Shown: positions 1,787 to 21,497 of the stretch, piece by piece
How the letters are laid out: each line of letters begins with the position of its first letter
How positions within the stretch are numbered: the first letter of the stretch is position 1
Assembly (NCBI GenBank): GCA_049516875.1
Contig: JBEKSS010000005.1
Coordinates: 32,001-96,000 of the forward strand
Direction: 5' to 3'
Origin: Candidatus Bathyarchaeia archaeon
Lineage (GTDB): Archaea > Thermoproteota > Bathyarchaeia > Bathyarchaeales > Bathycorpusculaceae
Length of the DNA stretch: 64,000 nt
Notes under the pieces: model-generated
What the model saw: the letters and a program-made list of their open reading frames with translations, nothing else
Database searches by the model: none
Told to the model about the DNA's origin: nothing
Translations under genes and position numbers: made by a program

Positions 1787-3718
1787 TTGCCAGGCGTCAA
1801 ACTTGATGATGATTTTTACATCGAGAAAACAGCAGAGGGTTATGTTCTTCTTGATCCCGGCGGCAAGGCTGTCCTGGGTCCATTTACGCTGACAGACAAA
1901 TCAATAATGAAAAAGATTGAAGAGCGCACGGGGGCGTCAGAAAAGGCTGTGGAGAGTGCTCTGGCCGAGCTTGCAGTACTATCTGCTGAAGAAACTAAAA
2001 AGACAAAGGCGGACAAGGAGAAGAGAGTCAAGAAAAAACTGAAGGATTCAGGGCTCACGGTTGAGGGTTCCTTTGAAGCAATTTACTCAGACGATAAGCC
2101 CTGTTTTTTGTTGAAGAATGGTGAGAGCTTCAGTATTGTCGAGAGCCTTGACAGTGATGGAGAAAAGGTTTTCCCGAAAGAGGCGAGAAACGTCCCTTAC
2201 GAGCCCTATGGCTATTTTCAAGGTTCTGTTCCAAACAGGGAAGACTTGTTCTGGCGGGTCCGGCAGGAGTTTGACACATGGATAGATGTGGAGCCTATCT
2301 GGAAAGATGTCTTAACCGCGTTAGTAATCTTGACGTACCTTCAGGAGAAACTTCGAACGGTACCATACATTTTCCTCTTTGGCGACAACGAATCGGGCAA
2401 AAGCACGGTCCTGCAGCTGCTAAAGTTTCTGTGTTACAGACCCATGTACGGGGTGACCATTCCAGCCGCGGACCTCTACGGGTACTTGGAAGACAGCGAC
2501 AGCATAGGCTGCATCTTGGAAGACGAAGTTCAGGGTATCAACAAGGACACGGACAAGATCAAGATTTACAAGGCAGGCTACAAGGCGGGAGCTGTCGTGC
2601 CGAGGACCCTTATCACCCAGAACGACCGTATCATAAAGTATTACAAAACTTTCAGTTTCAAAGCATGCGCGAGTGAACAGATACCACAGGTAAAGGGTTT
2701 CGCTGAGAGATTTCTCTTCATTCCTATGGTCGAAGGTTTTCCCCTGAAGGAGTGGGCGGACGCGACAGAAGAGGACTTGCACCGTCTTCACACTCTGCGA
2801 GATATCCTTTTGAAGTGGCGCATGCTCAGCCGAGACTGGGACTTGCCTAGCCTGGAGCTGCAGATGAAGGGGCGGCTTAAGGAACTGTGGAAGCCCATTC
2901 TACAGGTCACGCATGGCCTGCCGGTCTATGAGGACCTCTTCAAGTTTGTGGAGACCCAGAAAAACGAGAGGCTAAGCAACAGGCAGAACACTCTCGAGGG
3001 GCACATCGTCAAGGTCGTCGTCGACCTTCACAACGAGATGAGAGAGGAGAAGTCGAATCTTCCTTTCACGCTAATCTGGGAGGAACTCGTTCACGATCTC
3101 AACGGCAAACTTGACGACCGGAAACCACACGTTATGGACACAAGCGAGTTCTTCGAGGTGACTAAGAACAAGGTTGGTTATCGGCTGCGAGAAGTGCTTA
3201 GTGGCAGAACAACAGTGATAAAAGACAGAGATAGCGATGGAAAGCGTGTTTCTGTTAAAGCATATGTTTTCGACTCTGAGAAGTTGAGGCGTGTAGCCAA
3301 AAAGTATGGTTATGAAGTGTCTACTAAGTTACCGAGTCTACTAAGTTCCGAGAGTGCGCTCACGCCTGAAAGTATGGATAAAACCACTCTTAACAATGTT
3401 GAAAAAGAGCCTTGTACACCTCAGGAACTCGGTAGACTTAGTAACTCAGTAGACAGCCAAAAAGAGCCCTCTGGACTAGCTGTAGAAGACTCTTCTATAT
3501 CGAAAAATCCATTAAAAGAAAGTGTCGTAGACGAAAGGCTGTCAAACTCGGTAACAACCGAGCATACTCCTGGCGAAGAGGAAAGGGTTTGCGGTAAGTG
3601 CGCATCATGGCATAAACCAGGCTGTTCCTATCCAGAAGGCGAGCCTTCTTGTGTCACTCCATTGAACCGGTATGCCGCTGATTGTAAGGACTTCATTGCC
3701 GAGGAGGCCAAGGCATGA
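1787..3718 (+). CDS. P-loop ATPase, putative replicative helicase/Rep, with C-terminal Zn finger
   Basis: Walker A GDNESGKST, Walker B CILEDE, Arg-finger-like AERF, C-terminal CGKC..H..GC...C...C; position typical of an MGE replication gene. Confidence 0.75.
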   Translation: MPGVKLDDDFYIEKTAEGYVLLDPGGKAVLGPFTLTDKSIMKKIEERTGASEKAVESALAELAVLSAEETKKTKADKEKRVKKKLKDSGLTVEGSFEAIYSDDKPCFLLKNGESFSIVESLDSDGEKVFPKEARNVPYEPYGYFQGSVPNREDLFWRVRQEFDTWIDVEPIWKDVLTALVILTYLQEKLRTVPYIFLFGDNESGKSTVLQLLKFLCYRPMYGVTIPAADLYGYLEDSDSIGCILEDEVQGINKDTDKIKIYKAGYKAGAVVPRTLITQNDRIIKYYKTFSFKACASEQIPQVKGFAERFLFIPMVEGFPLKEWADATEEDLHRLHTLRDILLKWRMLSRDWDLPSLELQMKGRLKELWKPILQVTHGLPVYEDLFKFVETQKNERLSNRQNTLEGHIVKVVVDLHNEMREEKSNLPFTLIWEELVHDLNGKLDDRKPHVMDTSEFFEVTKNKVGYRLREVLSGRTTVIKDRDSDGKRVSVKAYVFDSEKLRRVAKKYGYEVSTKLPSLLSSESALTPESMDKTTLNNVEKEPCTPQELGRLSNSVDSQKEPSGLAVEDSSISKNPLKESVVDERLSNSVTTEHTPGEEERVCGKCASWHKPGCSYPEGEPSCVTPLNRYAADCKDFIAEEAKA

Positions 3719-4122
3719 CAGCTGTCGAGAAGCAGAGAACTAGCATGAACGGCCATCTGTCTGTCCTGGTCCAGCGGGTTCACGATGACGAGACACGGCT
3801 TGGCTACGCGAGTAAAGAACACCTCATCGACGTTTGCGAGTTCATATTGTCTTGGCCAGGCAGGTATGGTCGCGTAGAATATTCCGAGGCCATAAAACTT
3901 CTTGCACATTACCGTCTTGCGAAACTCGCAAACGTTTACCATAGTTATCGTGGCACGTGCCGGCGTCTCATTGAGGCTGAACGTGCGAAGCCGTATTTTG
4001 GGCGGTGCAGACGCTGCGGCAAAACCATTTCAAATCCAATCAGCCTGGCCTTTGGACACGGTCCAATTTGTAGAAAAAAACTTGGAATTCATGAGAAAGC
4101 TGGAGATCCGCAAGAGGGATAG
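3715..4122 (+). CDS. DUF6011-like Zn-finger protein
   Basis: CRRCGKTISNPISLAFGHGPIC matches the CxxCG...S...GxGPxC signature seen in phage proteins. Confidence 0.7.
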   Translation: MTAVEKQRTSMNGHLSVLVQRVHDDETRLGYASKEHLIDVCEFILSWPGRYGRVEYSEAIKLLAHYRLAKLANVYHSYRGTCRRLIEAERAKPYFGRCRRCGKTISNPISLAFGHGPICRKKLGIHEKAGDPQEG

Positions 4123-10790: not shown

Positions 10791-11273
10791 ATGAATGTTT
10801 TGCCAAGAAGAAATGCTCAAACAGCCGAAACCCAAGTCGTGACTGAACCTTCTAGACTAGATTTGCTTGAGGCTTTCGCAGAGTTGGTGGCTGAGAGATG
10901 GGGCTATTTTATGGGCAGACGCCTCACTCAACAAGAGATGACTGAGAAGTGCAAGAACGAAATCAAAGCTGCCAGAGAGAAATCCAAGGCTCTCAACGGG
11001 AGCATAGAGAAACTCATCAAGGGCGAGGATCCAGAAGTCCGAGCCATGATTGAGACTCAGCGTGCCGACCTGAAGAACGCCAAAGAAATCGCGGGCGAAG
11101 CTAGAAAGCCGTTCCAACAAAAGATTGCCCCTCTAGCTCAAGCTCAGAAATACTGTGACAACGTGGCCATTCCCGACTCTTTGAAAGAGTTGGGGCACCC
11201 TGTCACGCCACGGTTCAGCCTCAGCGAGTGGGTGGGCAAGGCTGTCGAGCAGAACAAGAGAAAGAAGAAGTAA
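10791..11273 (+). CDS. Coiled-coil protein with C-terminal PRFSLSEW motif and basic tail
   Basis: 160-aa helical ORF followed by an oligo-T junction. Confidence 0.8.
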   Translation: MNVLPRRNAQTAETQVVTEPSRLDLLEAFAELVAERWGYFMGRRLTQQEMTEKCKNEIKAAREKSKALNGSIEKLIKGEDPEVRAMIETQRADLKNAKEIAGEARKPFQQKIAPLAQAQKYCDNVAIPDSLKELGHPVTPRFSLSEWVGKAVEQNKRKKK

Positions 11274-11319
11274 GTCAGCTTCTTCCACATCAACCTCAAC
11301 CCCCTTTTTTTCCTGCTAA

Positions 11320-11845
11320 AACTGTTCGGCTCGTCCGACAGTGGCATGGAAAGGCAGTCTTGCGAGAGCTAGACGCACGAGAGGACAGAATAAAGGCTTG
11401 AGAAGACAAAGATAGAAGCGTTTGTGCGTTAAACCTCAAAGGACTGTGGAGAAGGAAGACCGCTGGCTGTAAGGGAACAGCCGAAACCCCAATGAAGTCT
11501 TTTTCACAGCTAACCGCTCAGGACCTCTTCGTCCATTATCCAGAAGGTTTAATGGACATGGAGAGGGCACTCTCCGAGCCGATCGGCGGTGTAAGCTGAA
11601 GGAGAGTTGGTAGCTCGTATAACACAAAGAAGAAGCCCCATTACTTCTAAGCCTGATCCATGTGGGAGACACCCCCAATCATACTACCCACGTGCTACTC
11701 ACATTGAACAAGCTACCTTCGGGTACGCATGTTTCAAGTCGAGTTGGGCGGAAGCGAGCAGCGTAGAAGGGCGACTTTCTACGCGAGGAAATGGAAGGCG
11801 CAGCAATGCGCTGGGCGAGGCAGCACAGACGCTTACCAACGCTGG
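11320..11845 (+). ncRNA. Putative large structured ncRNA (~520 nt)
   Basis: Continuous nested stems, GCGA and GCAA GNRA loops, a C(UUCG)G loop, and G-U pairs consistent with plus-strand RNA. Confidence 0.65.
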
Positions 11846-11857
11846 GGTGTTAGTGTC

Positions 11858-12082
11858 ATGAGCATTTTCTGCGAGAATGAAGGAAAGTTGGTCACTATCG
11901 TTATCCCAAACAGAATAGCCATCGGCAGCCAAGTGAAAGTCATCAAGTGCCACAAGAAACTGCGCGATCGTGATTGTAGGGGCTGCCTTGCCAAGCATGC
12001 GTGTGCTGTATTCTTAGACGAGCCGAGGTTTTCACTCAAAACTTTCTGTGGAGGTCGAAGACGTCGAAAACGGAAACCATAG
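11858..12082 (+). CDS. Small Cys-rich protein with PRFSLKTF motif and Arg tail
   Basis: GGGGTG SD at 11844-11849, then ATG 11858 (MSIFCENEGK...). Confidence 0.7.
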   Translation: MSIFCENEGKLVTIVIPNRIAIGSQVKVIKCHKKLRDRDCRGCLAKHACAVFLDEPRFSLKTFCGGRRRRKRKP

Positions 12083-12113
12083 TCCTCTTCCTTTTTCTGT
12101 TCGGGGTGCATGT

Positions 12114-12374
12114 ATGGCCAGAGTTTTGCCAGCAAATGCTATAGAGGTGTCACACAACAAGGAAGCATTCTGCTTAATCTTCAGGTTCCAAGCTGCTGAC
12201 GCACATCAAGAAGCCGTCTACATCTCCATATCGCCTGCAGGAGCAAAAACCACGTCTGCCCTAATCGGCAGGGAAATCCAAGAGTACGAAAGAGAAACAG
12301 GTCTGACAGTAGCACCTTGGGAAATGCCTCAGAGCACACTGACCCAGATGAGTAAAAACCACCTCTCAAGCTGA
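12114..12374 (+). CDS. DUF3467-like protein
   Basis: ANAIEVSHNKEAFCLIF...ISISPAGAKT...LI..EIQEYE..G pattern; start follows a junction repeat. Confidence 0.65.
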   Translation: MARVLPANAIEVSHNKEAFCLIFRFQAADAHQEAVYISISPAGAKTTSALIGREIQEYERETGLTVAPWEMPQSTLTQMSKNHLSS

Positions 12375-12436
12375 TCGCTGAAACGTTTAAATACCTTCTT
12401 CCTTTTTTTGTACGAGGTACGAAGTGGGGTGGAACG

Positions 12437-12643
12437 ATGCCCAAAAAGAAAAGCAAGAGTAAAGAAACCGCACGGCTCAACCTGTACCTCGACCCGGACC
12501 TGGCGAAAAAGCTGAACGACTACTGCCTCGCATACATGGAAAAACACAAGAAAATAATTGAGTCCATAAGACAGATGGTTGGCAGGATGGCGCTGGCAGA
12601 ATGGCTTCAAAACCACGGCGACGACTTCACCGTCGAGCTCTAG
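12437..12643 (+). CDS. Ribbon-helix-helix-like DNA-binding protein
   Basis: RLNLYLDPDLAKKLNDYC beta-alpha-alpha pattern; has its own BRE-TATA upstream. Confidence 0.7.
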   Translation: MPKKKSKSKETARLNLYLDPDLAKKLNDYCLAYMEKHKKIIESIRQMVGRMALAEWLQNHGDDFTVEL

Positions 12644-12674
12644 CCTCCACTTTTTTCTCTTCGGGGTGATTCAA

Positions 12675-12806
12675 ATGGTAAGAAAAGATCCGGAGCATTG
12701 TAGCCACATACGGATAAACAGGGTCCTTGACACCTGGCTCTGCAACGAGTGCGGAGCTGAATTTGTTCCGAAGAATCCTAAGCACACGACAAAGTGGCAA
12801 AATTAA
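12675..12806 (+). CDS. Small Zn-ribbon protein (43 aa)
   Basis: HCSH...WLCNECGAEF; bounded by two junction repeats. Confidence 0.7.
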   Translation: MVRKDPEHCSHIRINRVLDTWLCNECGAEFVPKNPKHTTKWQN

Positions 12807-12824
12807 CCCCCTTTTTCTGCGGTG

Positions 12825-12955
12825 CAAACACCTACTTCATCGACAGTCGAAAGGCTGCAACAGGCGGCGTGGCTCTAATCTCGCTGCGACAAGGGCACTT
12901 TTTGCGCGGAAAAGGTAGGGGGTTCTGTGCAGAAAACCCTAGTCGTGACCATTGG
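12825..12955 (+). ncRNA. Putative small structured RNA (multi-way junction)
   Basis: CCTAC/GTAGG encloses three hairpins, including CAGTC-GAAA-GGCTG. Confidence 0.5.
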
Positions 12956-12969
12956 GGTGTGTATGAGCA

Positions 12970-13635
12970 ATGAGCAAGATACCGTTGCTTCTGCAGCGCA
13001 TTCAAAGATTTGAGGAGAGTCCCAGGGCTCCGCCGAAGACAAGCAAGAAACTGCTAGCCCTTCTCAATCGATTGAACACTCGCGAGTGGCTGCCCATCGT
13101 TGAAGGACAGCTGATGGAAGCCATTGTTCACTTGAAATGTGAAGTGAAGTTCATTGAACACCTGCCCCGCTGCCGGTTCTGTCAGCTGGAGCTCCAGCTA
13201 GATGTCGAGCGTTACAACGGAGTCCATTCAACCTGGTATCTCAGCCTGGAAAACAGTGAATATCTCGAAGAGGAATACCCTGACTGTCCCAAAGAGGAAG
13301 ATTACACGATAGATGATTATTGGAGTCAAGTGGAACGTTACAGGCAGACCGGCACAACAGAATCGAAAGACGTCAACACCCTGAAATTCATCTTGGACAG
13401 GGCAAAATGGGCTTACCAGATAGCTGGAAAACAGATAAAACTGGCCCGGCAGCTGCTCAGACTCGTTCGAAACTGGAACTTCAGCGAGAAGACCGAGGTA
13501 GAATTCAACAGGCTCTTCGAAGAACTTGAAATGTACGAGATAGCTAATCCTTCCCTTTTTTCTGCCTTGGGGTGTAAACACGAGCGACAAACTTCAGAAA
13601 CTGATACACACCATCAACACAAAACGGTATGCTAG
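12970..13635 (+). CDS. Hypothetical helical protein with CxxC; C-terminus reads through a junction repeat
   Basis: CRFC; the junction copy at 13553-13574 lies inside the ORF, so the native stop was probably near 13547. Confidence 0.7.
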   Translation: MSKIPLLLQRIQRFEESPRAPPKTSKKLLALLNRLNTREWLPIVEGQLMEAIVHLKCEVKFIEHLPRCRFCQLELQLDVERYNGVHSTWYLSLENSEYLEEEYPDCPKEEDYTIDDYWSQVERYRQTGTTESKDVNTLKFILDRAKWAYQIAGKQIKLARQLLRLVRNWNFSEKTEVEFNRLFEELEMYEIANPSLFSALGCKHERQTSETDTHHQHKTVC

Positions 13636-14566
13636 AGGAAACCCGAAGGATATACTATATCGGATTCTCGATGAAATCGACATGAGAGCCCACTTCGGTT
13701 ATAGAAGAAGCTGGGAGATACTCGTCGAACTGTTGGCCTATCACCTTGGCTTGCTGTCAAACCCCTGGCTCTACTCGAAACCAGCGATGGACTTACGGTA
13801 CGTTGAAGAGAAGACGAATCCGATGATAAGGCTCGGATTCCGCAGAAACCAGGGTCTGTGGGCTCCTAGAATGAGACTGCAGTGGAGACATCCAGCCTCC
13901 CAGCTTTCACGAGAAGCGAGAGAGGTTCTAGCCCGCGTTGAAGAGACGGACCTTCTGGAACAGTACGTCGTGGCAGCCAGGGCTAAGCCGTGGGACCATG
14001 TAGGCGACATATTCGTTGAACAGGAACTGGCAGGACGGAAGAACGCTCTTGGACAGAACCTGACACCCAAGCAGATCGTTGACTTCATGTTGAAAATGAC
14101 CCTGGATTTTGATAAGCCCACAAAGGAGCCAAGAACGTTGCTTGAACCATGTGTCGGAACAGGGCGATTTCTGATAGAAGCAAGTCTGATGAACCCTGAA
14201 AAACCTCTAATCCTATTCGGAATCGAGATAGACATCACACTGTACCGGGCATGCCTAGTCAACATGGCTCTCTTCAGCAGCAACCATCCCTACAGCATCA
14301 TCCGGGCTGACACGTTGATGCTTGATCTCGAGGCTTCAATGCCTGGCAGCCCGGTCTGGAACCAGGGTAACAGGTGGGATCCAGCGGACATGTCACCATA
14401 CTACATCAAGATACCTCTACCATTCAAGTTCTCCCTAGCGGAAATGGCAAAGGTTATGAAAGAGCAGTCAACCGACGTGCAGCAGCCCACCATCGTAATA
14501 CCGACGCCGCCGATGGCGTTCTCACTTGCAACACTGGCCAGAGCGAAGAAGAAACAACAGACATAA
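13580..14566 (+). CDS. N-6 DNA methylase (HsdM-like) SAM-binding protein lacking the NPPY motif
   Basis: GQNLTPKQIVDFM, LLEPCVGTGRFL, LFGIEID, IIRADTL. The frame is open back to ACG 13580, 5 nt after GGGGTG (track start 13682). Confidence 0.8.
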   Translation, partial: TSDKLQKLIHTINTKRYARGNPKDILYRILDEIDMRAHFGYRRSWEILVELLAYHLGLLSNPWLYSKPAMDLRYVEEKTNPMIRLGFRRNQGLWAPRMRLQWRHPASQLSREAREVLARVEETDLLEQYVVAARAKPWDHVGDIFVEQELAGRKNALGQNLTPKQIVDFMLKMTLDFDKPTKEPRTLLEPCVGTGRFLIEASLMNPEKPLILFGIEIDITLYRACLVNMALFSSNHPYSIIRADTLMLDLEASMPGSPVWNQGNRWDPADMSPYYIKIPLPFKFSLAEMAKVMKEQSTDVQQPTIVIPTPPMAFSLATLARAKKKQQT

Positions 14567-14598
14567 TCCCTCTTTTTTTTCTGTCCGGGGTGCAAAAG

Positions 14599-14997
14599 TT
14601 GAATCCTTTGGAATTGTATCAGCTTAGGCGTTACTGCCGCAAATACGGATTGGATTTTCAGGAGGTCGACAGCACGTTAACATACGCAGAATGCAAAAAG
14701 CATCTTAAGTCCCTGGTGCACATGCTCTTCCAATCACTGGACACGTTTGAACTGGCTCGCATGGCATCGCTGCAGGTAGAGTACATAGAAAACCACGCTC
14801 TCACCTACTATGCATCATGTCGGGTGGGTGGAGAGACAAAATCGGAAGAAGTCGGGGATCCCGACACGAGTCCACAGCGGTTTTCGCTGAAGACCATGAC
14901 AAGTGTTGGATTCTCTCTTTCATCATACGCAAAGCGACAGCCTGCATTTCCGGACCCTAGCATGAACAAGACAAGGCAAACTCAACGAAAAACCTAG
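14599..14997 (+). CDS. Hypothetical protein with two FSL motifs
   Basis: TTG start 6 nt after the junction GGGGTG; ends ...PQRFSLKTMTSVGFSLSSYAKRQ... Confidence 0.75.
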   Translation: MNPLELYQLRRYCRKYGLDFQEVDSTLTYAECKKHLKSLVHMLFQSLDTFELARMASLQVEYIENHALTYYASCRVGGETKSEEVGDPDTSPQRFSLKTMTSVGFSLSSYAKRQPAFPDPSMNKTRQTQRKT

Positions 14998-15094
14998 GCT
15001 AAACCGCCCAGAAATAGTCTTCTTCCTCATACTATATTACAGAAATCTCAAACATTCGGTGAGAGCCCTCTTTTTTTCTCCCCGGGGTGCAAGA

Positions 15095-15364
15095 GTGAGA
15101 CTCCGACGAAGCGACGTGCAAATCGTGAGAGCGATTCTCGAGGCAGCCAAGAAACTGGTGCGGGAGCCCTACTCGCTGAGCGAGCTGGCCGCAGCGGCAA
15201 GCGTGACGAGGAAAACCGCGAGAAGATGGCTCAGCCTGCTCAGGACAGTGGCGGAACTGTTGGTTCTGCCCCTGGAAACCAGGGTTGCTTATTTTGAGGG
15301 TCCAGGAAGAGGCAGAAAGCGAAGACGGAAAAGACTGACCACCGTTTCTCTCGCGCTCAGGTAG
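15095..15364 (+). CDS. Winged-HTH DNA-binding protein with basic tail
   Basis: YSLSELAAAASVTRKTARRWLSLL; GTG start after a junction repeat. Confidence 0.75.
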   Translation: MRLRRSDVQIVRAILEAAKKLVREPYSLSELAAAASVTRKTARRWLSLLRTVAELLVLPLETRVAYFEGPGRGRKRRRKRLTTVSLALR

Positions 15365-15497
15365 GCTGCCATCCCCTTTTTTTCTATGTTCAACTGGGTT
15401 CACTTGGGGTCCAAGGTTTTTGTATTTTCTCCGCACGCTCGTTACGGTTGCCCTATGGGGTGAAAAAACCCTTAAACCTTAAAGGAGAAAGAGAAAA

Positions 15498-16046
15498 ATG
15501 AAAAGACTCAGTAGGCTTAGTACACGCGGCAAAACTCTGATCGTCATCTTGTGCGCTGCTACGCTGGTTGGGGTTGCCGTCGCTATCCCCATCCTCGAGC
15601 GAGTGCTAACAGTGACAGTTCAAACCGGGCCCAGGCTCTTCGAAATCTGGAACGCGGACAGGACAGCGCAGATAACGAGTGTGGATATTGGCGGAATCTT
15701 CCCGGACCAGGTCAACGCCGTAAACTTGACCACGATCTACTTGCACAACACCGACACTTCGGGACAGCGCGACCTGAACATCACGGTGCATCCGTCGGCA
15801 ACGTTCGACTCGACCATCTTCAACCTGCTCGTAAACGGCACAAACCTGGCGGATGGCGTCACAAGAGTGCTTTGGAACAACGGGCCGGGCACATGGGTCC
15901 TGGCCTGGGGCCACGACCAGACGTATCCGATAGAGTGGGTCAAGGTGGAAATCTACCTGTGGCTCAAGCCCGAAGCAAGCCCGCCAGCCGGCGCCTACGA
16001 CTTTCAGCTGCTCTGGGACGCGCCGCTAGGCTCTTGGGGACCGTAG
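15498..16046 (+). CDS. Secreted/membrane-anchored beta-rich protein
   Basis: Basic N-terminus plus hydrophobic helix LIVILCAATLVGVAVA; several N-x-S/T sequons; GGAG SD and TATA-like CTTAAA upstream. Confidence 0.75.
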   Translation: MKRLSRLSTRGKTLIVILCAATLVGVAVAIPILERVLTVTVQTGPRLFEIWNADRTAQITSVDIGGIFPDQVNAVNLTTIYLHNTDTSGQRDLNITVHPSATFDSTIFNLLVNGTNLADGVTRVLWNNGPGTWVLAWGHDQTYPIEWVKVEIYLWLKPEASPPAGAYDFQLLWDAPLGSWGP

Positions 16047-16096
16047 TGAACGCTAAAGCGAACACTTCATAACCCTCTTTTTTCTGTTCGGGGTGA

Positions 16097-16396
16097 ATGA
16101 AAGCGTCTGAATCTCTTAAAACAAAAGTCAAATCCTACAACCCGTACACGAGAGCACGGAACAATCAACAGATTTACAAGACGTGTCCAGACTGTGGAAG
16201 AGAGCTTATGATGTATCGTGAATCGGGACATCAGCACTGGAGACCTACCGGCAGAGCATGTCCAGAACTTGTTGAATGGAACTATGTTGTGTACATACGA
16301 TGTGGAATCTGCGGTGGATTAGTTAAAACACGGTTGAAACCTATGTCGAAGTCTATGCCAAAGGACCTAGCGCGGCAATGGAAATTAATACCCTGA
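16097..16396 (+). CDS. Zn-ribbon protein
   Basis: CPDCG...CGICG; between junction repeats. Confidence 0.7.
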   Translation: MKASESLKTKVKSYNPYTRARNNQQIYKTCPDCGRELMMYRESGHQHWRPTGRACPELVEWNYVVYIRCGICGGLVKTRLKPMSKSMPKDLARQWKLIP

Positions 16397-16435
16397 GTCT
16401 CCACTCCTCCCTTTTTCTGTTCTGGGGTGATTGAA

Positions 16436-16582
16436 TTGAGTTATTTGCGAAGAATCTTAGGAGTAGTCCTGAATGGCGCCGCGGAAGTCAGTCAGATCGC
16501 CAGCGACGCCGCCAAGGAAACAGCAGAAGTAGTCAAGGACGTCGCCAAGACCGTTACCGAGAAGAAACCAGCAACGGCATGA
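16436..16582 (+). CDS. Small amphipathic helical protein (48 aa, not in the ORF track)
   Basis: TTG 6 nt after GGGGTG; MSYLRRILGVVLNGAAEVSQIASDAAKETAEVVKDVAKTVTEKKPATA. Confidence 0.65.
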   Translation: MSYLRRILGVVLNGAAEVSQIASDAAKETAEVVKDVAKTVTEKKPATA

Positions 16583-16673
16583 AGCCTTTATTTACGAGGG
16601 GCTTCTGCCTCTTTTTTTTCTGTTCGGGGTGAAGGCCCGTTTAAGGTTGGAATGAAGGGCAAGCAGTGGTTAT

Positions 16674-20018: not shown

Positions 20019-21497
20019 CTATGGTGTGTATTTGAAAGGATGTTTTGATCGGTCCTTGTTTTCCATAAGCTCGTCCATGCCAGGTCTGCCTTCCATGGCC
20101 TTGCGCACGGCGTGACGTACAGCCTTGTAGTTGTTTATGTACACACGTTGTCGGTCAACGGCTGCGGGATGGACGAAAACGTTTGCTATGATTATGAGTT
20201 CTTCAACAGCTTCCTTCGGAATCGTGCCATCTGCGACGCTGTCTATGACAGCTTTGGCCACCGCCGTTTGGGCTGGCCCATAAACCATGCTTGCCTCCCG
20301 CATGCCCCTGATCGTGACTGTTGGAACGATTAGGGTTACCGGCTTGACCGCCAAGTTCGGCTCCAGAATGGCCAGTAACGGCTCATGCCCCGGAGTTGGT
20401 GTTGCCTTGGCCTTTGTGAAGGCTTCCGCCACTGGGCCGTCTTTCGTTCCGATAAGGAGGTCAACGTGAGCCACCTCTGCATCCTGCCCAGCTAGTGCTT
20501 CCCCAACGCGCAGTTTGAAGTTCTTGACTGTTTCTGGAGTAATGTCCACGGTCACGAAACGCTCTTCCAGAGGTTTCTCAGTTAGCTCAAAGCTTATTGG
20601 TTTTGGTTGTACTTTCCCTATTTTTTCCAGGTCGAGCCTCAGTTCCTCTTTTGACTCGTAGGTTAATTCTCCACCGACGCTTAATGGTTTCCTCACTGGG
20701 CCGACCTTGATTTTCATCATCTTCAGCGCCTCTTTTGTGCCTACGGCGCCGCTTCCCGCTATTATTCTAGCTATTTTCTGGACTTTGTATTGAAGTTCGC
20801 GGGCCTGTTGCAGCTCACCCTTCTTCACATGGTTATAGATTTGAATCCAAATGTCGGGTATGACGTTGGCACTAGCAAGGATTGCCCCTGAGCATCCGGC
20901 TGAGAGTCCTGCCACGACAACCTCGTCGTGCCCGCAAAGAACGTTTATCTTGTCCCTGACTTTTTCCAGAACGGCCAAGATGAAGCTTAGCTGTCCGCTG
21001 CTGTCCTTCAATGCGACGATGTTTGGGATTTGCGCTAGATCTTCCACCATCTGCCAGGGAAGAGGCAAGCCTGTGCACTGCGGAATGTTGTAGAGAATTA
21101 TGGGCAGGTCGACTTCATTCGCAATCGTGTAGTAGTGCTCGTATATTCCCCGATCTGCTGGTTTTAGGTAGAACGGTGTGACGATGAGGGCAGCGGTGGC
21201 GCCAACGTCCTTTGCGTACTTCGTCATTTCCACCGCTTGGTCTGTGCCGCTTGCTCCTGTCCCAGCAATCACTGGAACCCGGCCGTTCACTTCGTCAACC
21301 ACGATCTTGATTACGCCCTTTTTCTCCTCGTTCGTGAGGTTTACAAACTCGCCGGTCGTACCGCACGGGACGACTCCGTGAACGCCCAGTTCGATGCAAT
21401 GGTTAACTAAACTCCGCAGCCTTTCTTCGTCAATTGTTTTCCCGTCGTCGGTAAAGGGCGTCACCAGCGCGGGCATAATGCCTTCCGGCTTGTACAT
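20019..21497 (-). CDS. DapA/NAL-family aldolase fused to formaldehyde-activating enzyme (Fae)
   Basis: GTTGE, YNIP, LKDSS; C-terminal VGEAL...VAHVDLLIG...GPAQ...HPF Fae domain. Confidence 0.9.
   Translation of the reverse strand: MYKPEGIMPALVTPFTDDGKTIDEERLRSLVNHCIELGVHGVVPCGTTGEFVNLTNEEKKGVIKIVVDEVNGRVPVIAGTGASGTDQAVEMTKYAKDVGATAALIVTPFYLKPADRGIYEHYYTIANEVDLPIILYNIPQCTGLPLPWQMVEDLAQIPNIVALKDSSGQLSFILAVLEKVRDKINVLCGHDEVVVAGLSAGCSGAILASANVIPDIWIQIYNHVKKGELQQARELQYKVQKIARIIAGSGAVGTKEALKMMKIKVGPVRKPLSVGGELTYESKEELRLDLEKIGKVQPKPISFELTEKPLEERFVTVDITPETVKNFKLRVGEALAGQDAEVAHVDLLIGTKDGPVAEAFTKAKATPTPGHEPLLAILEPNLAVKPVTLIVPTVTIRGMREASMVYGPAQTAVAKAVIDSVADGTIPKEAVEELIIIANVFVHPAAVDRQRVYINNYKAVRHAVRKAMEGRPGMDELMENKDRSKHPFKYTP

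Follow-up and report, generated by a model that had tools for sequence, protein, structure and literature searches.

A large structured RNA on mobile elements of Bathyarchaeia with a probable circularly permuted RNase P-like core

We analysed a window of 64,000 nt from a Candidatus Bathyarchaeia archaeon (contig JBEKSS010000005.1, positions 32,001 to 96,000) and found a non-coding RNA gene that spans window positions ~11300-11843 on the + strand, flanked by a gene for a 160-aa protein (10791-11273) and by a small gene (ATG at 11858). A first-pass annotation of this DNA had described a densely folded stretch of ~520 nt with ten stems; the stretch is real as described, and all ten stems are present in the sequence. 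Its start at 11320 was close, and the conserved element begins earlier, at ~11300-11312. The location inside a T-run/GGGGTG junction was upheld by our junction scan.

A protein-coding reading of the stretch was rejected. All six frames hold stop codons (5-15 per frame in 11200-11900), Pfam gave 0 families at E ≤ 1 for five ORF fragments of the RNA stretch and PHROG 0 matches for three, no ORF is conserved in five relatives of the RNA, and the RNA alignment is free of 3-base (codon) periodicity. Protein-coding conservation, which the first-pass annotation had regarded as incompatible with its RNA reading, gave no signal. By DNA search the window RNA is a single copy within its genome, and a search of 61 relatives and of 401 genomes from the class with the window copy returned nothing beyond short chance matches.

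The features of the locus are as follows; P1 to P13 are helices of this RNA, helices of RNase P are named as such with proposed equivalences, and fractions give the pairs of a helix in which both sides change.
10791-11273, + strand: gene for a conserved 160-aa protein, constantly 5' of the RNA (220 homologues; the RNA follows the gene in 82/84 loci)
11300-11311, + strand: C-run and T7, which form the junction motif's 5' half; the candidate pairing with GGAAAGG (11348-54) is 87.3% paired, 0/5
11312-11349, + strand: 5' hairpins, with H0 inner (11312-17/11343-49; 97.6% paired, 4/6) around H1 (11322-29/11335-41; 96.6% paired, 7/7)
11384-11397, + strand: strongly conserved single strand GACAGAATAAAGGC, invariant columns in alignment A3
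11405-11410, + strand: deletion joint, where relatives hold a peripheral domain of ~217 model columns closed by GUAGGUUCUCCAG/CUGGAAAAGAACCUAC
11416-11427, + strand: 5' strand of P1, a 12-bp long-range closing helix (partner 11823-11834); 93.7% paired, 5/12, with a coordinated 3-nt deletion in one clade
11434-11437, + strand: 5' strand CCTC of P2 (partner GAGG, 11817-20), at the RNase P P5 position and followed by an AAAG joint; 100% paired, 4/4
11444-11509, + strand: P3 (11444-55/11498-509; 10/12) around P5 (11465-70/11477-82; 5/6), with a GGG loop at 11473-75 and CCCC at 11487-90
11460-11463, + strand: pseudoknot strand CCGC of P4 (partner GCGG, 11586-89); 100% paired, 2/4
11524-11566, + strand: P6 hairpin; 11/13
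11569-11607, + strand: P7 hairpin, which holds the 3' strand of the P4 pseudoknot; 99% paired, 6/6
11613-11617, + strand: 5' strand of P8 (partner 11755-59), RNase P P2 equivalent; 98% paired, 3/5
11618-11634, + strand: joint with invariant AGAA (11631-34), RNase P P2/P4 joint equivalent
11635-11644, + strand: 5' strand of P9, GCCCCATT plus AC (partners 11790-93 and 11813-16), RNase P P4 equivalent and a pseudoknot relative to P8; 96.6% and 92% paired, 4/8
11644-11647, + strand: 5' strand of P10 (partner 11751-54), RNase P P1 equivalent, capped and without RNA ends; 98.5% paired, 3/4
11659-11694, + strand: P11 hairpin, whose loop CACCCCCAAT (11670-79) is complementary to GGGGTG; 8/8
11697-11744, + strand: P12 (11697-700/11741-44), with a variable UUCG hairpin at 11714-25; 4/4
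11761-11784, + strand: P13 GNRA hairpin, RNase P P3 equivalent; 10/10
11785-11790, + strand: GAGGAA joint with invariant AGGAA, RNase P P3/P4 joint equivalent
11797-11812, + strand: hairpin inserted into the P9 3' strand in a subgroup (10/51 sequences)
11844-11849, + strand: GGGGTG, the 3' half of the junction and a Shine-Dalgarno-like site of the next gene, at a fixed distance past P1 in 55/60 loci
11858-12082, + strand: 74-aa Cys-rich gene in a hypervariable slot 3' of the RNA (25 families among 47 ORFs of the slot)
12103-16631, + strand: 11 further T-run/GGGGTG junctions found by the junction scan

We found that an HMM of the RNA family matches 82 of 84 related loci, always on the + strand and directly 3' of the 160-aa gene; the remaining two loci stop ≤34 nt past that gene. 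Nucleotide identity of the RNA is 67-93%, compared with 48-64% for the neighbouring protein. The relatives' RNA is typically ~800 nt, and the window copy is a shortened member from which one peripheral domain was cleanly lost; in locus L029 the interior of this domain was deleted independently. The 160-aa protein is predicted to form a helical hairpin with a basic tail (AF2 pLDDT 79); its model has no PDB fold match at E ≤ 0.001, its sequence gave coiled-coil noise only against the PDB, and an Atlas search with it gave no useful lead. An integrase lies ~3 kb upstream in three loci, and in integrated copies the RNA sits mid-element, with the host RNase P gene on a different contig. Neither the flank proteins nor the protein alignment have a relative in IMG/VR, and the family HMM confirmed none of the 89 matches there to a 16-base RNA motif. 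The family is, with near certainty, a large structured RNA on integrase-bearing elements of Bathyarchaeia that heads an array of small genes, and the window stretch almost surely belongs to it. Linkage to tRNA was rejected, tRNA genes being close to the RNA in only 2/84 loci.

Folding of the single sequence gave -201.9 kcal/mol on the + strand (z -3.14; - strand z -2.17), which is just a modest improvement on shuffles, and comparative data decide. For the 3' domain we used alignment A2, with 51 sequences (type 1) and 111 pairs, and found 92.9% of cells paired, against 74.7% when shuffled and 38-47% with slid partners. Both sides change in 81 of the 111 pairs, and double-change cells number 1023, against 304 shuffled and 105-185 slid; 0/500 shuffles attain the observed values. 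The 5' hairpins are paired in 94.3% of cells (43-53% slid), and no covarying partner was found for 11357-11400. G-U cells (396) far outnumber A-C cells (85), and therefore the RNA is read from the + strand. Hence, the plus-strand structured RNA of a mobile element proposed in the first-pass annotation is borne out by wobble and covariation, and the homologue search it called for yielded the family described above.

Seven of the ten stems listed earlier are kept with compensatory changes and three are no family feature. GGCTGT/ACAGCC is P5, CCTCTTC-GTCCATTA/TAATGGAC-GGAGAGG is P6, CTCTCC/GGAGAG is P7, CATGTGGG/CCCACGTG is P11 and GCGTAGAAGG-GCGA-CTTTCTACGC is P13; TACC-TTCG-GGTA is the variable hairpin, whose columns hold letters in ~17/51 rows. 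CTGTG../..CACAG is P3 and covaries, in an inner register different from that proposed. The stem GACGCACGA/TTGTGCGTT pairs in 58.4% of cells and overlaps the covarying helix 11416-27/11823-34, conservation is absent for GTTGG..AAGCG/CGCTT..CCAAC, whose CGCTT has AAGCG at 11416-20 as its partner, and GCGCA-GCAA-TGCGC is the insertion found in 10/51 sequences. For the suspected GGG/CCCC pseudoknot, 94.8% of cells could pair, with zero both-sided changes.

Few ribozymes are common to all domains of life, and RNase P is among them. With an RF00373 (archaeal type A) alignment of the host RNase P as the source of reference strands and joints, we found that P8, P9, P10 and P13, with the invariant joints AGAA, UAC and AGGAA, mirror the P2/P4/P1/P3 core of archaeal RNase P. 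From 5' to 3' this core runs through a P8 strand, ..AGAA, a P9 strand, AC, P10 (capped by P11 and P12), the second P8 strand, the P13 hairpin, GAGGAA, the second P9 strand and the P2/P1 strands; in RNase P terms, these are the P2 3' strand, P2/P4 joint, P4 3' strand, P1, P2 5' strand, P3, P3/P4 joint, P4 5' strand and P5. Hairpins cap P1, in which natural RNase P has its ends, and the new ends lie at the expected place of the specificity domain. The columns beside P9 that never vary in the window's subtype are precisely AGAA, UAC and AGGAA: A224, G225 and A226 of A2 fall in the AGAA joint, where the Rfam consensus has ...ACAGAA before the P4 3' strand, and A379-A383 are the AGGAA, where the consensus reads GAGGAAA. 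P4 stem, P2/P4 joint and P15/P2 joint are universally conserved positions, and archaeal P2 has 6 bp, as far as PMC3579882 describes them.

A second subtype of the family (type 2) brings the link down to the letters. Type 2 RNAs have an exact 17-mer and an exact 12-mer in common with the P4 strands of the host RNase P, in reversed order: the 17-mer (P3/P4 joint and P4 5' strand) is in loci L042 and L047, with a 16-mer in L061 and L065, and the 12-mer (P4 3' strand) is in five type 2 RNAs. A composite motif (GAGGAA plus a strand, and A[GA]AA plus the complementary 8-mer plus AC) matched twice in the 4.86-Mb own genome, once in the host RNase P and once by chance, and occurred in 24/84 loci, all on the + strand, all permuted and with covarying helices. 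A sequence HMM built from 29 family RNase P RNAs gave 12 matches, all on the + strand, in seven RNAs, with both segments in reversed order in five; reversed controls gave 0 matches and shuffled controls 0-1. No type 1 RNA was matched by this HMM. Hence, the P4 pseudoknot helix with its P3/P4 and P2/P4 joints is present in the family as P9, and the order is permuted in 24/24 scan loci and in 5/5 RNAs with two-segment HMM matches, in place of the collinear order with ends in P1.

Comparison with Rfam models, suggested in the first-pass annotation, brought no family to threshold: the window stretch had no match at E ≤ 10 and five relatives none at E ≤ 1, and GOLLD, ROOL, HEARO, OLE, raiA, other large Rfam RNAs and group I/II introns gave no gathering-level match. 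RF00373 is the best weak match by E value on L042 (13.7 bits, E 0.13), with a collinear alignment of ~110 nt over the P5/P15 joint, P15, P15/P2 joint, P2, P2/P4 joint, P4 and P1; L061 scores 13.5 bits, and the gathering threshold is 84. Any RF00373 match was seen in just 2/6 scanned type 2 loci, an RF00373 search of the own genome found the host gene only, and the window and four type 1 relatives have no RNase P match in Rfam. For the window's own subtype (type 1), the link therefore consists of topology, joints and kinship with type 2. The core is probably a circularly permuted RNase P catalytic core derived from RNase P, and the window's subtype likely shares its descent, to judge from topology and joints.

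The family RNA is like archaeal type A RNase P (RF00373) in its P4-type pseudoknot flanked by GAGGAA(A) and by ..AGAA, then UAC, in the P3-like hairpin directly 5' of GAGGAA, in the abutting P1- and P2-like strands and in the P5-like helix with an AAAG joint after it; type 2 members also hold the host's exact P4 strands and the bulged base of the P4 5' strand, the latter called in 9/9 type 2 matches and 0/15 of type 1. It differs in being permuted, with P1 capped by P11/P12 and no recognisable specificity domain, in its length (2-3 times greater), in large extra domains (P3-P7, 5' hairpins, peripheral domain), and in lying on a mobile element beside the host gene and scoring ≤13.7 bits against the threshold of 84. 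No equivalent of the specificity domain could be established. As leads, GACAGAATAAAGGC might correspond to the ACAGAAA joint of that domain in the Rfam consensus, and GACAGAAUAAAGGC, with a variable and deletable domain after it, is similar to the joint that precedes P12; the helices expected around GACAGAAUAAAGGC overlap P1, and the stem listed there earlier is the one at 58.4%. The hairpin within the P4-like strand of the window's subgroup (10/51) may conflict with RNase P-type catalysis.

Type T RNase P of Thermoproteaceae, so far as it is set out in PMC3579882, likewise keeps the catalytic domain and the universal P4 and joints with most of the specificity domain absent, and was found only with its own model; unlike the family RNA, it is collinear, short, chromosomal and the cell's sole RNase P RNA. 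GOLLD and ROOL, in the account of bioRxiv 10.1101/2024.12.08.627333, are similarly large, ornate, associated with mobile elements, derived from comparative analysis and of unknown function; they are bacterial and match the family RNA neither in sequence nor by model, and a ribozyme core can be recognised only in the family RNA, which also has a constant partner gene for a protein. The first-pass annotation had proposed a new class conceptually like these, which we do not adopt because the core has RNase P joints and pseudoknot topology in permuted order, a likeness missed in that annotation.

Permuted RNAs have other precedents. Permuted SRP RNA is one of those in archaea. Permuted tRNA genes (PMC3978253) and a permuted 23S rRNA (bioRxiv 10.64898/2026.03.23.713588), as these sources present them, are others. 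Unlike the family RNA, these are restored by bulge-helix-bulge cutting and circularisation, and no bulge-helix-bulge motif was found at the ends of the family RNA; its P1 cap is moreover the best-conserved loop and not a spacer.

Downstream of the RNA, we found GGGGTG on the + strand at 2.9/kb (338 in 116.7 kb), against 0.04/kb upstream (7 in 188 kb), 0.03/kb on the - strand and a genome background of 0.099/kb. A T-run of T5 or longer lies within 30 nt upstream of 73% of the downstream sites. The junction motif is complementary to the conserved CACCCCC loop of P11, in which ACCCCCA is invariant; CACCCCC is present in 49/51 type 1 sequences and CACCCC in 11/11 of type 2. Pairing of loop and GGGGUG is beyond a covariation test because both are invariant. 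GGGGUG is also a plain ribosome-binding site, with the start codon 4-14 nt later.

Contigs of relatives in two sediment metatranscriptome runs of one study cover 11338-11873; these are contigs only, without RNA ends, whose depth is unfit for ranking genes and whose uncovered parts are uninformative. One 602-nt RNA-library contig extends from the RNA to within the next gene.

In the laboratory, RNase P RNA has proved tolerant of new ends, and a guide attached beyond P1 steers cleavage to the target with which it pairs. As in engineered permuted or guide-linked RNase P, the family's CACCCCC loop lies just beyond the P1-like helix; the engineered forms are artificial, and the natural loop is a candidate guide by analogy only. 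We propose that the RNA may cut RNA, either as a ribozyme or within a ribonucleoprotein, for which the 160-aa protein or the proteins of the host RNase P are possible partners. The CACCCCC loop, at the place where an engineered guide is attached to RNase P RNA, would pair with GGGGUG at the start of each downstream cistron, and the polycistronic transcript would be processed at GGGGUG, the RNA's own 3' junction included. We give this explanation as a whole, a permuted RNase P-like RNA and proposed cutter of array junctions, a probability of about 0.5. Of its parts, RNA cleavage is a speculative function argued by analogy, with odds a little against it, and targeting of junctions by the CACCCCC loop is speculative and doubtful. 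A re-wired RNase P that is permuted to place a built-in guide loop beyond P1 and that cuts RNAs at GGGGUG, either to split the element's polycistronic transcript into single messages or to attack other RNAs, would be an unlikely but specific form of such action.

An RNase P-derived RNA need not cut. It could be a mimic that binds and sequesters host RNase P proteins, or an anti-Shine-Dalgarno sponge over the GGGGUG-led genes. Type 1 is without the bulged base and the P4-like strand of the window's subgroup holds an inserted hairpin, as such a mimic would allow, and every downstream gene has a ribosome-binding site complementary to the loop; yet the joints flanking P4 are invariant in 51 diverged sequences, more than a protein-binding mimic seems to need, and a lone RNA copy would be outnumbered by its dozen or more sites, which suits a sponge badly unless the RNA reaches very high levels. 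We consider this unlikely. That the RNA is ornate and new in the way of GOLLD/ROOL, with no relation to RNase P and with its P4-like helix and joints convergent or a small captured piece, is quite unlikely: RNase P models all stay below threshold, type 1 has no sequence-level match, and the larger part of the molecule (P3-P7, the 5' domain and the peripheral domain) has no demonstrable RNase P counterpart, but the 17-mer and 12-mer are identical to host P4 strands with the same flanks, a single permutation restores the helix order including the AC linker and the abutting P1/P2 strands, the weak RF00373 alignment is collinear, and the controls of the motif scan and of the sequence HMM are clean.

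A cis-acting leader of the array, serving T-run read-through, transcript stabilisation or gating of the first ribosome-binding site, would explain why no T-run lies between the RNA and the next GGGGTG, at a distance fixed in 55/60 loci, why each later junction has a T-run without space for a promoter, and why the 602-nt contig joins RNA and next gene. The 5' C-run is also pairable with the 3' GGGG in 95.8% of cells, but its changes are wobble only and the pairing is weak in the window itself. The ~800 nt, three pseudoknots and RNase P joints far exceed the needs of known antitermination RNAs, and the constant partner is the upstream gene, the downstream slot being hypervariable; a leader is improbable. 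Least credible, at a very low probability, is that the stretch is no RNA gene at all. Partial 3' copies of RNase P genes in relatives of this archaeal family resemble integration scars, and therefore RNase P-like DNA can act as an attachment site; with the integrase ~3 kb upstream in three loci, this fits a DNA element such as an origin or attachment site. Against it stand the excess of G-U over A-C and pseudoknots with compensatory changes on both strands, and, for an attachment site, the mid-element position of the RNA and the host RNase P gene on another contig; a decayed protein gene is at odds with the lack of periodicity, ORF, Pfam or PHROG match.

To our knowledge, natural forms of RNase P are collinear and cellular, and almost no large RNA classes are known on archaeal mobile elements. 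A literature search (subscription journals and supplementary files outside its scope) found no description of such an RNA. If confirmed, the permuted RNase P-like RNA would be a circularly permuted, enlarged relative of RNase P on mobile elements beside the host's gene. It would then demonstrate that the RNase P catalytic core is open to re-wiring and to use in another role, would enlarge the small set of large RNAs on archaeal mobile elements by one class, and would make guide-directed cleavage by RNase P testable in nature, as a counterpart to the guide-linked forms made in the laboratory. The family escapes standard RNase P models, and similar RNAs may therefore hide elsewhere.

The second C-motif of the RNA is CCCCAA in only 20/51 sequences, and the C-loops may make internal contacts instead. 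The T-runs at the 5' edge and in the relatives' peripheral domain could terminate transcription.

The element RNA is a structured RNA gene at ~11300-11843 (+) of the window (C5:32001-96000 of a 2.43-Mb archaeal assembly). We found that the window's initial ~17 kb, together with DNA upstream, look like an integrated element because they encode an N6 DNA methylase, a ParB-like nuclease and, upstream, a 421-aa ORF with tyrosine integrases as its relatives. At 20019-21497 (-), the window also has a fusion ORF that joins dihydrodipicolinate-synthase-family and formaldehyde-activating enzyme domains (PF00701 + PF08714). The immediate neighborhood of the RNA is as follows.

10791-11273 (+): 160-aa gene, upstream of the element RNA
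11274-11857: gap with the element RNA, between the 160-aa and 74-aa genes
11858-12082 (+): slot with the 74-aa Cys-rich gene (ATG at 11858), downstream of the element RNA

All six reading frames of the gap are closed, its ORF fragments had no family in Pfam or PHROG, its relatives have no ORF in common, and column variability had no 3-base period. We saw no sign of protein-coding conservation. At gathering level, Rfam found only two distant tRNAs in the whole window, and at E<=10 on 11000-12200 it returned four weak matches, each far under its own threshold; no Rfam family fits the element RNA. Its single-sequence fold (-201.9 kcal/mol and z -3.14 for the + strand; z -2.17 for the - strand) is suggestive of a structured RNA, not decisive.

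The stretch is single copy in its own genome, and by DNA search it had only short chance matches in 61 relatives and in 401 genomes of the class. The 160-aa protein upstream of it has 220 homologues, which identify the group as Bathyarchaeia, and an alignment of 40 of these, used as the query, recovered 80 metagenome and 4 genome loci and none from IMG/VR. We found matches to the window's gap alone in 75 of these 84 loci and to a family HMM in 82, all on the + strand and all immediately 3' of the 160-aa gene; in the other two, the sequence stops <=34 nt after that gene. The gap is 67-93% identical (nucleotide), compared with only 48-64% for the 160-aa protein. On one 2.2-Mb metagenome contig there are three copies of the module of 160-aa gene and RNA (L064, L068 and L075).

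Most full-length members measure 660-940 nt. The window copy, L010 (a metagenome sequence identical to it) and, through a separate event, L029 lack a peripheral domain that spans about 217 model columns; the window copy lost the closing helix along with the domain. In most full-length members this domain includes another conserved T-run, of 6-8 T (family-HMM columns about 270-277; for example, L020 near 3700-3760), which would be odd if T-runs terminate transcription in these archaea.

We measured covariation in A2, an alignment of the 3' domain of 51 distinct members, using 21 helices taken from those pairing in >=85% of sequences. Pairing held in 92.9% of 5330 cells versus 74.7 ± 0.4% after shuffling and 38-47% after sliding by 1-3 columns, a percentage favored by deriving the structure from the same family. 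Both sides changed in 81 of 111 pairs, double-change cells numbered 1023 (304 ± 18 shuffled, 105-185 slid), the covariation score was 0.493 (0.184 shuffled, 0.07-0.11 slid), and none of 500 shuffles reached any observed value. The 5' hairpins are 94.3% paired versus 43-53% slid, support that does not extend to pairing of the T-run. Long-range contacts include these:

11416-27 with 11823-34: P1, 12-bp long-range closing helix; in one clade, both strands have lost 3 nt in a coordinated way
11460-63 with 11586-89: pseudoknot CCGC/GCGG
P9, crossing P8: second pseudoknot

The large structured plus-strand RNA proposed by the first-pass annotation is borne out by the 1023 double-change cells and by 396 G-U versus 85 A-C cells; comparative pairing kept seven of its ten stems and rejected three. 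Variability is higher in paired than in unpaired columns (0.879 versus 0.685 bits). The element is a + strand RNA in which many single-stranded positions are conserved (69 invariant columns), and its family goes with the 160-aa gene. Among close relatives of the window copy, strand 11416-30 can pair with either 11372-80 or 11823-34, and in L017 strands 11372-11380, 11416-11430 and 11823-11834 all change together; this may be an alternative-pairing switch confined to the window's clade. Metatranscriptome contigs of relatives (two sediment runs, one study) cover 11338-11873, and one of 602 nt runs on into the next gene; as contigs, they give neither RNA ends nor a ranking of genes.

Twelve loci have a second form of the 3' domain, type 2 (L042, L043, L047, L061, L062, L065, L076, L050, L067, L036, L083 and L093), with the same 5' third as type 1, the subtype of the window copy, and a 3' domain that is different, simpler and closer to RNase P, closed by ACCUGCUU/AAGCAGGU. 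The type 2 motifs led to a comparison with RNase P, with helices referenced to the host RNase P RNA as aligned by Rfam. The host has one ordinary, full-length RNase P RNA gene (G000:C14:34820-35127 (-), 196.6 bits). L042 and L047 share exactly its 17-mer spanning the P3/P4 joint and P4 5' strand (L061 and L065 share a 16-mer), and five type 2 RNAs share exactly its P4 3' strand 12-mer; in type 2, the order of the two P4 strands is reversed, with the 3' strand first. A composite motif (GAGGAA plus a strand and, no more than 700 nt away, A[GA]AA followed by a complementary 8-mer and AC) occurs twice in the own genome, both strands searched: in host RNase P and as one chance match. Of the 84 loci, 24 have it, in each case on the + strand and in permuted order, with helix sequences diverse yet complementary.

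In L042, RF00373 was the weak match of lowest E (13.7 bits, E 0.13), aligned with high posterior probability from the P5/P15 joint via P15, P2 and P4 to P1; L061 scored 13.5 bits, and four other type 2 loci scanned had no match. An HMM built from 29 RNase P RNAs of the same archaeal family gave, at E<=1 on 83 element RNAs, 12 matches, all + strand and within seven type 2 RNAs, five of which had both segments in reversed order; reversed sequences gave 0 matches, five shuffles gave 0-1 each, and no type 1 RNA matched. By collinearity and by model score, these RNAs fall outside formal RNase P membership. The window copy maps onto RNase P as follows.

11613-17 with 11755-59: P8, as RNase P P2
11631-34: invariant AGAA ending a joint, as the P2/P4 joint
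P9, then invariant UAC: as RNase P P4
P10, with its 3' strand directly next to that of P8, an arrangement shared with the Rfam consensus: as RNase P P1
P13, then GAGGAA at 11785-90 (AGGAA invariant): as RNase P P3
CCUC/GAGG, then an AAAG joint: as RNase P P5

PMC3579882 places the universally conserved positions in two joints, P2/P4 and P15/P2, and in the P4 stem, and gives archaeal P2 a length of 6 bp. RNase P core joints and the pseudoknot are present here in permuted order: a single circular permutation turns the RNase P helix order into the one seen here. Unlike RNase P, the element RNA has P1 capped by P11/P12, and its ends fall in the specificity-domain region. As a lead, GACAGAAUAAAGGC and the deletable domain after it are a candidate counterpart to the specificity domain; the helix that should flank them shares positions with P1, and no more than 58.4% of its cells pair. 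Evidence for descent from RNase P is strong for type 2; for the window's type it consists of topology, invariant joints and the 5' domain in common with type 2. Overall, we give descent from RNase P a probability of about 0.75. Subscription journals and supplementary files aside, a literature search turned up no natural RNase P-like RNA that is permuted or borne on an element, and term look-ups in two papers on archaeal and Bathyarchaeia viruses gave none; one of them lists RNase P among the proteins of two proviruses.

The gene order is ~100-aa gene, 160-aa gene, RNA and small genes, often followed farther downstream by an ATP-dependent ligase, a methylase and others, with an integrase about 3 kb upstream in three loci. 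The ligase cluster is present in 36 loci, and two members match PF01068. This ATP-dependent DNA ligase, which also matches RNA-ligase and capping-enzyme domains more weakly, is encoded 0.4-1.9 kb 3' of the RNA (L047 3663-4826, L080 2824-3822 and 34 further loci); the window has none. The slot after the RNA holds 25 families among 47 ORFs (32-97 aa, several Cys-rich), a hypervariability that resembles an accessory or anti-defence hot spot.

The RNA heads a GGGGUG-punctuated gene array. In 55 of 60 loci it is followed at a fixed distance by GGGGTG and, 4-14 nt further on, by a start codon, so the first-pass annotation was right to place the RNA inside a T-run/GGGGTG junction. Downstream of the RNA, the + strand has 338 GGGGTG in 116.7 kb (2.9/kb), versus 7 in 188 kb upstream (0.04/kb), 0.03/kb on the - strand and a genome background of 0.099/kb; genes upstream do not use the motif. 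T5 or more lies just upstream of 73% of sites, and the window has 12 sites with a T-run (11844 to 16626). Each gene junction 3' of the RNA (window 11844-16631 (+); L011-L093) combines a C-rich tract, a T-run and GGGGTG. The P11 loop is complementary to GGGGUG: its sequence is CACCCCC in 49 of 51 type 1 RNAs and CACCCC in 11 of 11 of type 2. Another C-motif (11486-92) is CCCCAA in only 20 of 51. In some members, insertions beside one or the other C-motif supply GGGG and make that motif part of a long hairpin (after CCCCAA in L028, L013, L019, L026, L049 and L052; after CCACCCCCAA in L059, L073, L092, L046 and L066), as if the insertion replaced the motif's normal partner.

We propose, at slightly under even odds, that the element RNA cuts RNA. 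Its CACCCCC loop would pair with GGGGUG-led junctions, where the transcript would be processed; by analogy, laboratory guide sequences for RNase P are attached just beyond P1, and this loop sits just beyond the P1-like helix. Such targeting we regard as unlikely. Against cutting, type 1 lacks the bulged base that type 2 keeps in the P4-like strand (composite-motif scan), and in the subgroup of the window copy that strand is interrupted by a hairpin, features that a non-catalytic mimic or anti-SD sponge would accommodate; against junction targeting, GGGGUG is also simply a ribosome-binding site. Covariation is uninformative on this pairing, with the P11 loop and the GGGGUG site both invariant.

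The GGGGTG at a fixed distance, and a contig running on into the next gene, would also suit a cis leader or antiterminator, a less likely reading; the RNase P-type joints go beyond the needs of known antitermination RNAs. The permuted core weighs against an ornate RNA unrelated to RNase P, a reading with which the lack of type 1 HMM matches is consistent. A DNA element is very unlikely: the excess of G-U over A-C cells points to RNA.

As for how elements could come by RNase P sequence, two genomes of the same archaeal family (G021 and G013) hold a full RNase P gene and also a partial 3' copy joined to unrelated DNA: L214 7747-8033 (G021:C1:259746-260032), 83.5 bits, and L215 2718-2898 (G013:C170), 38.3 bits. 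Each partial copy resembles a scar left where an element had entered the RNase P gene; such integration would be a possible route for elements to acquire RNase P sequence.
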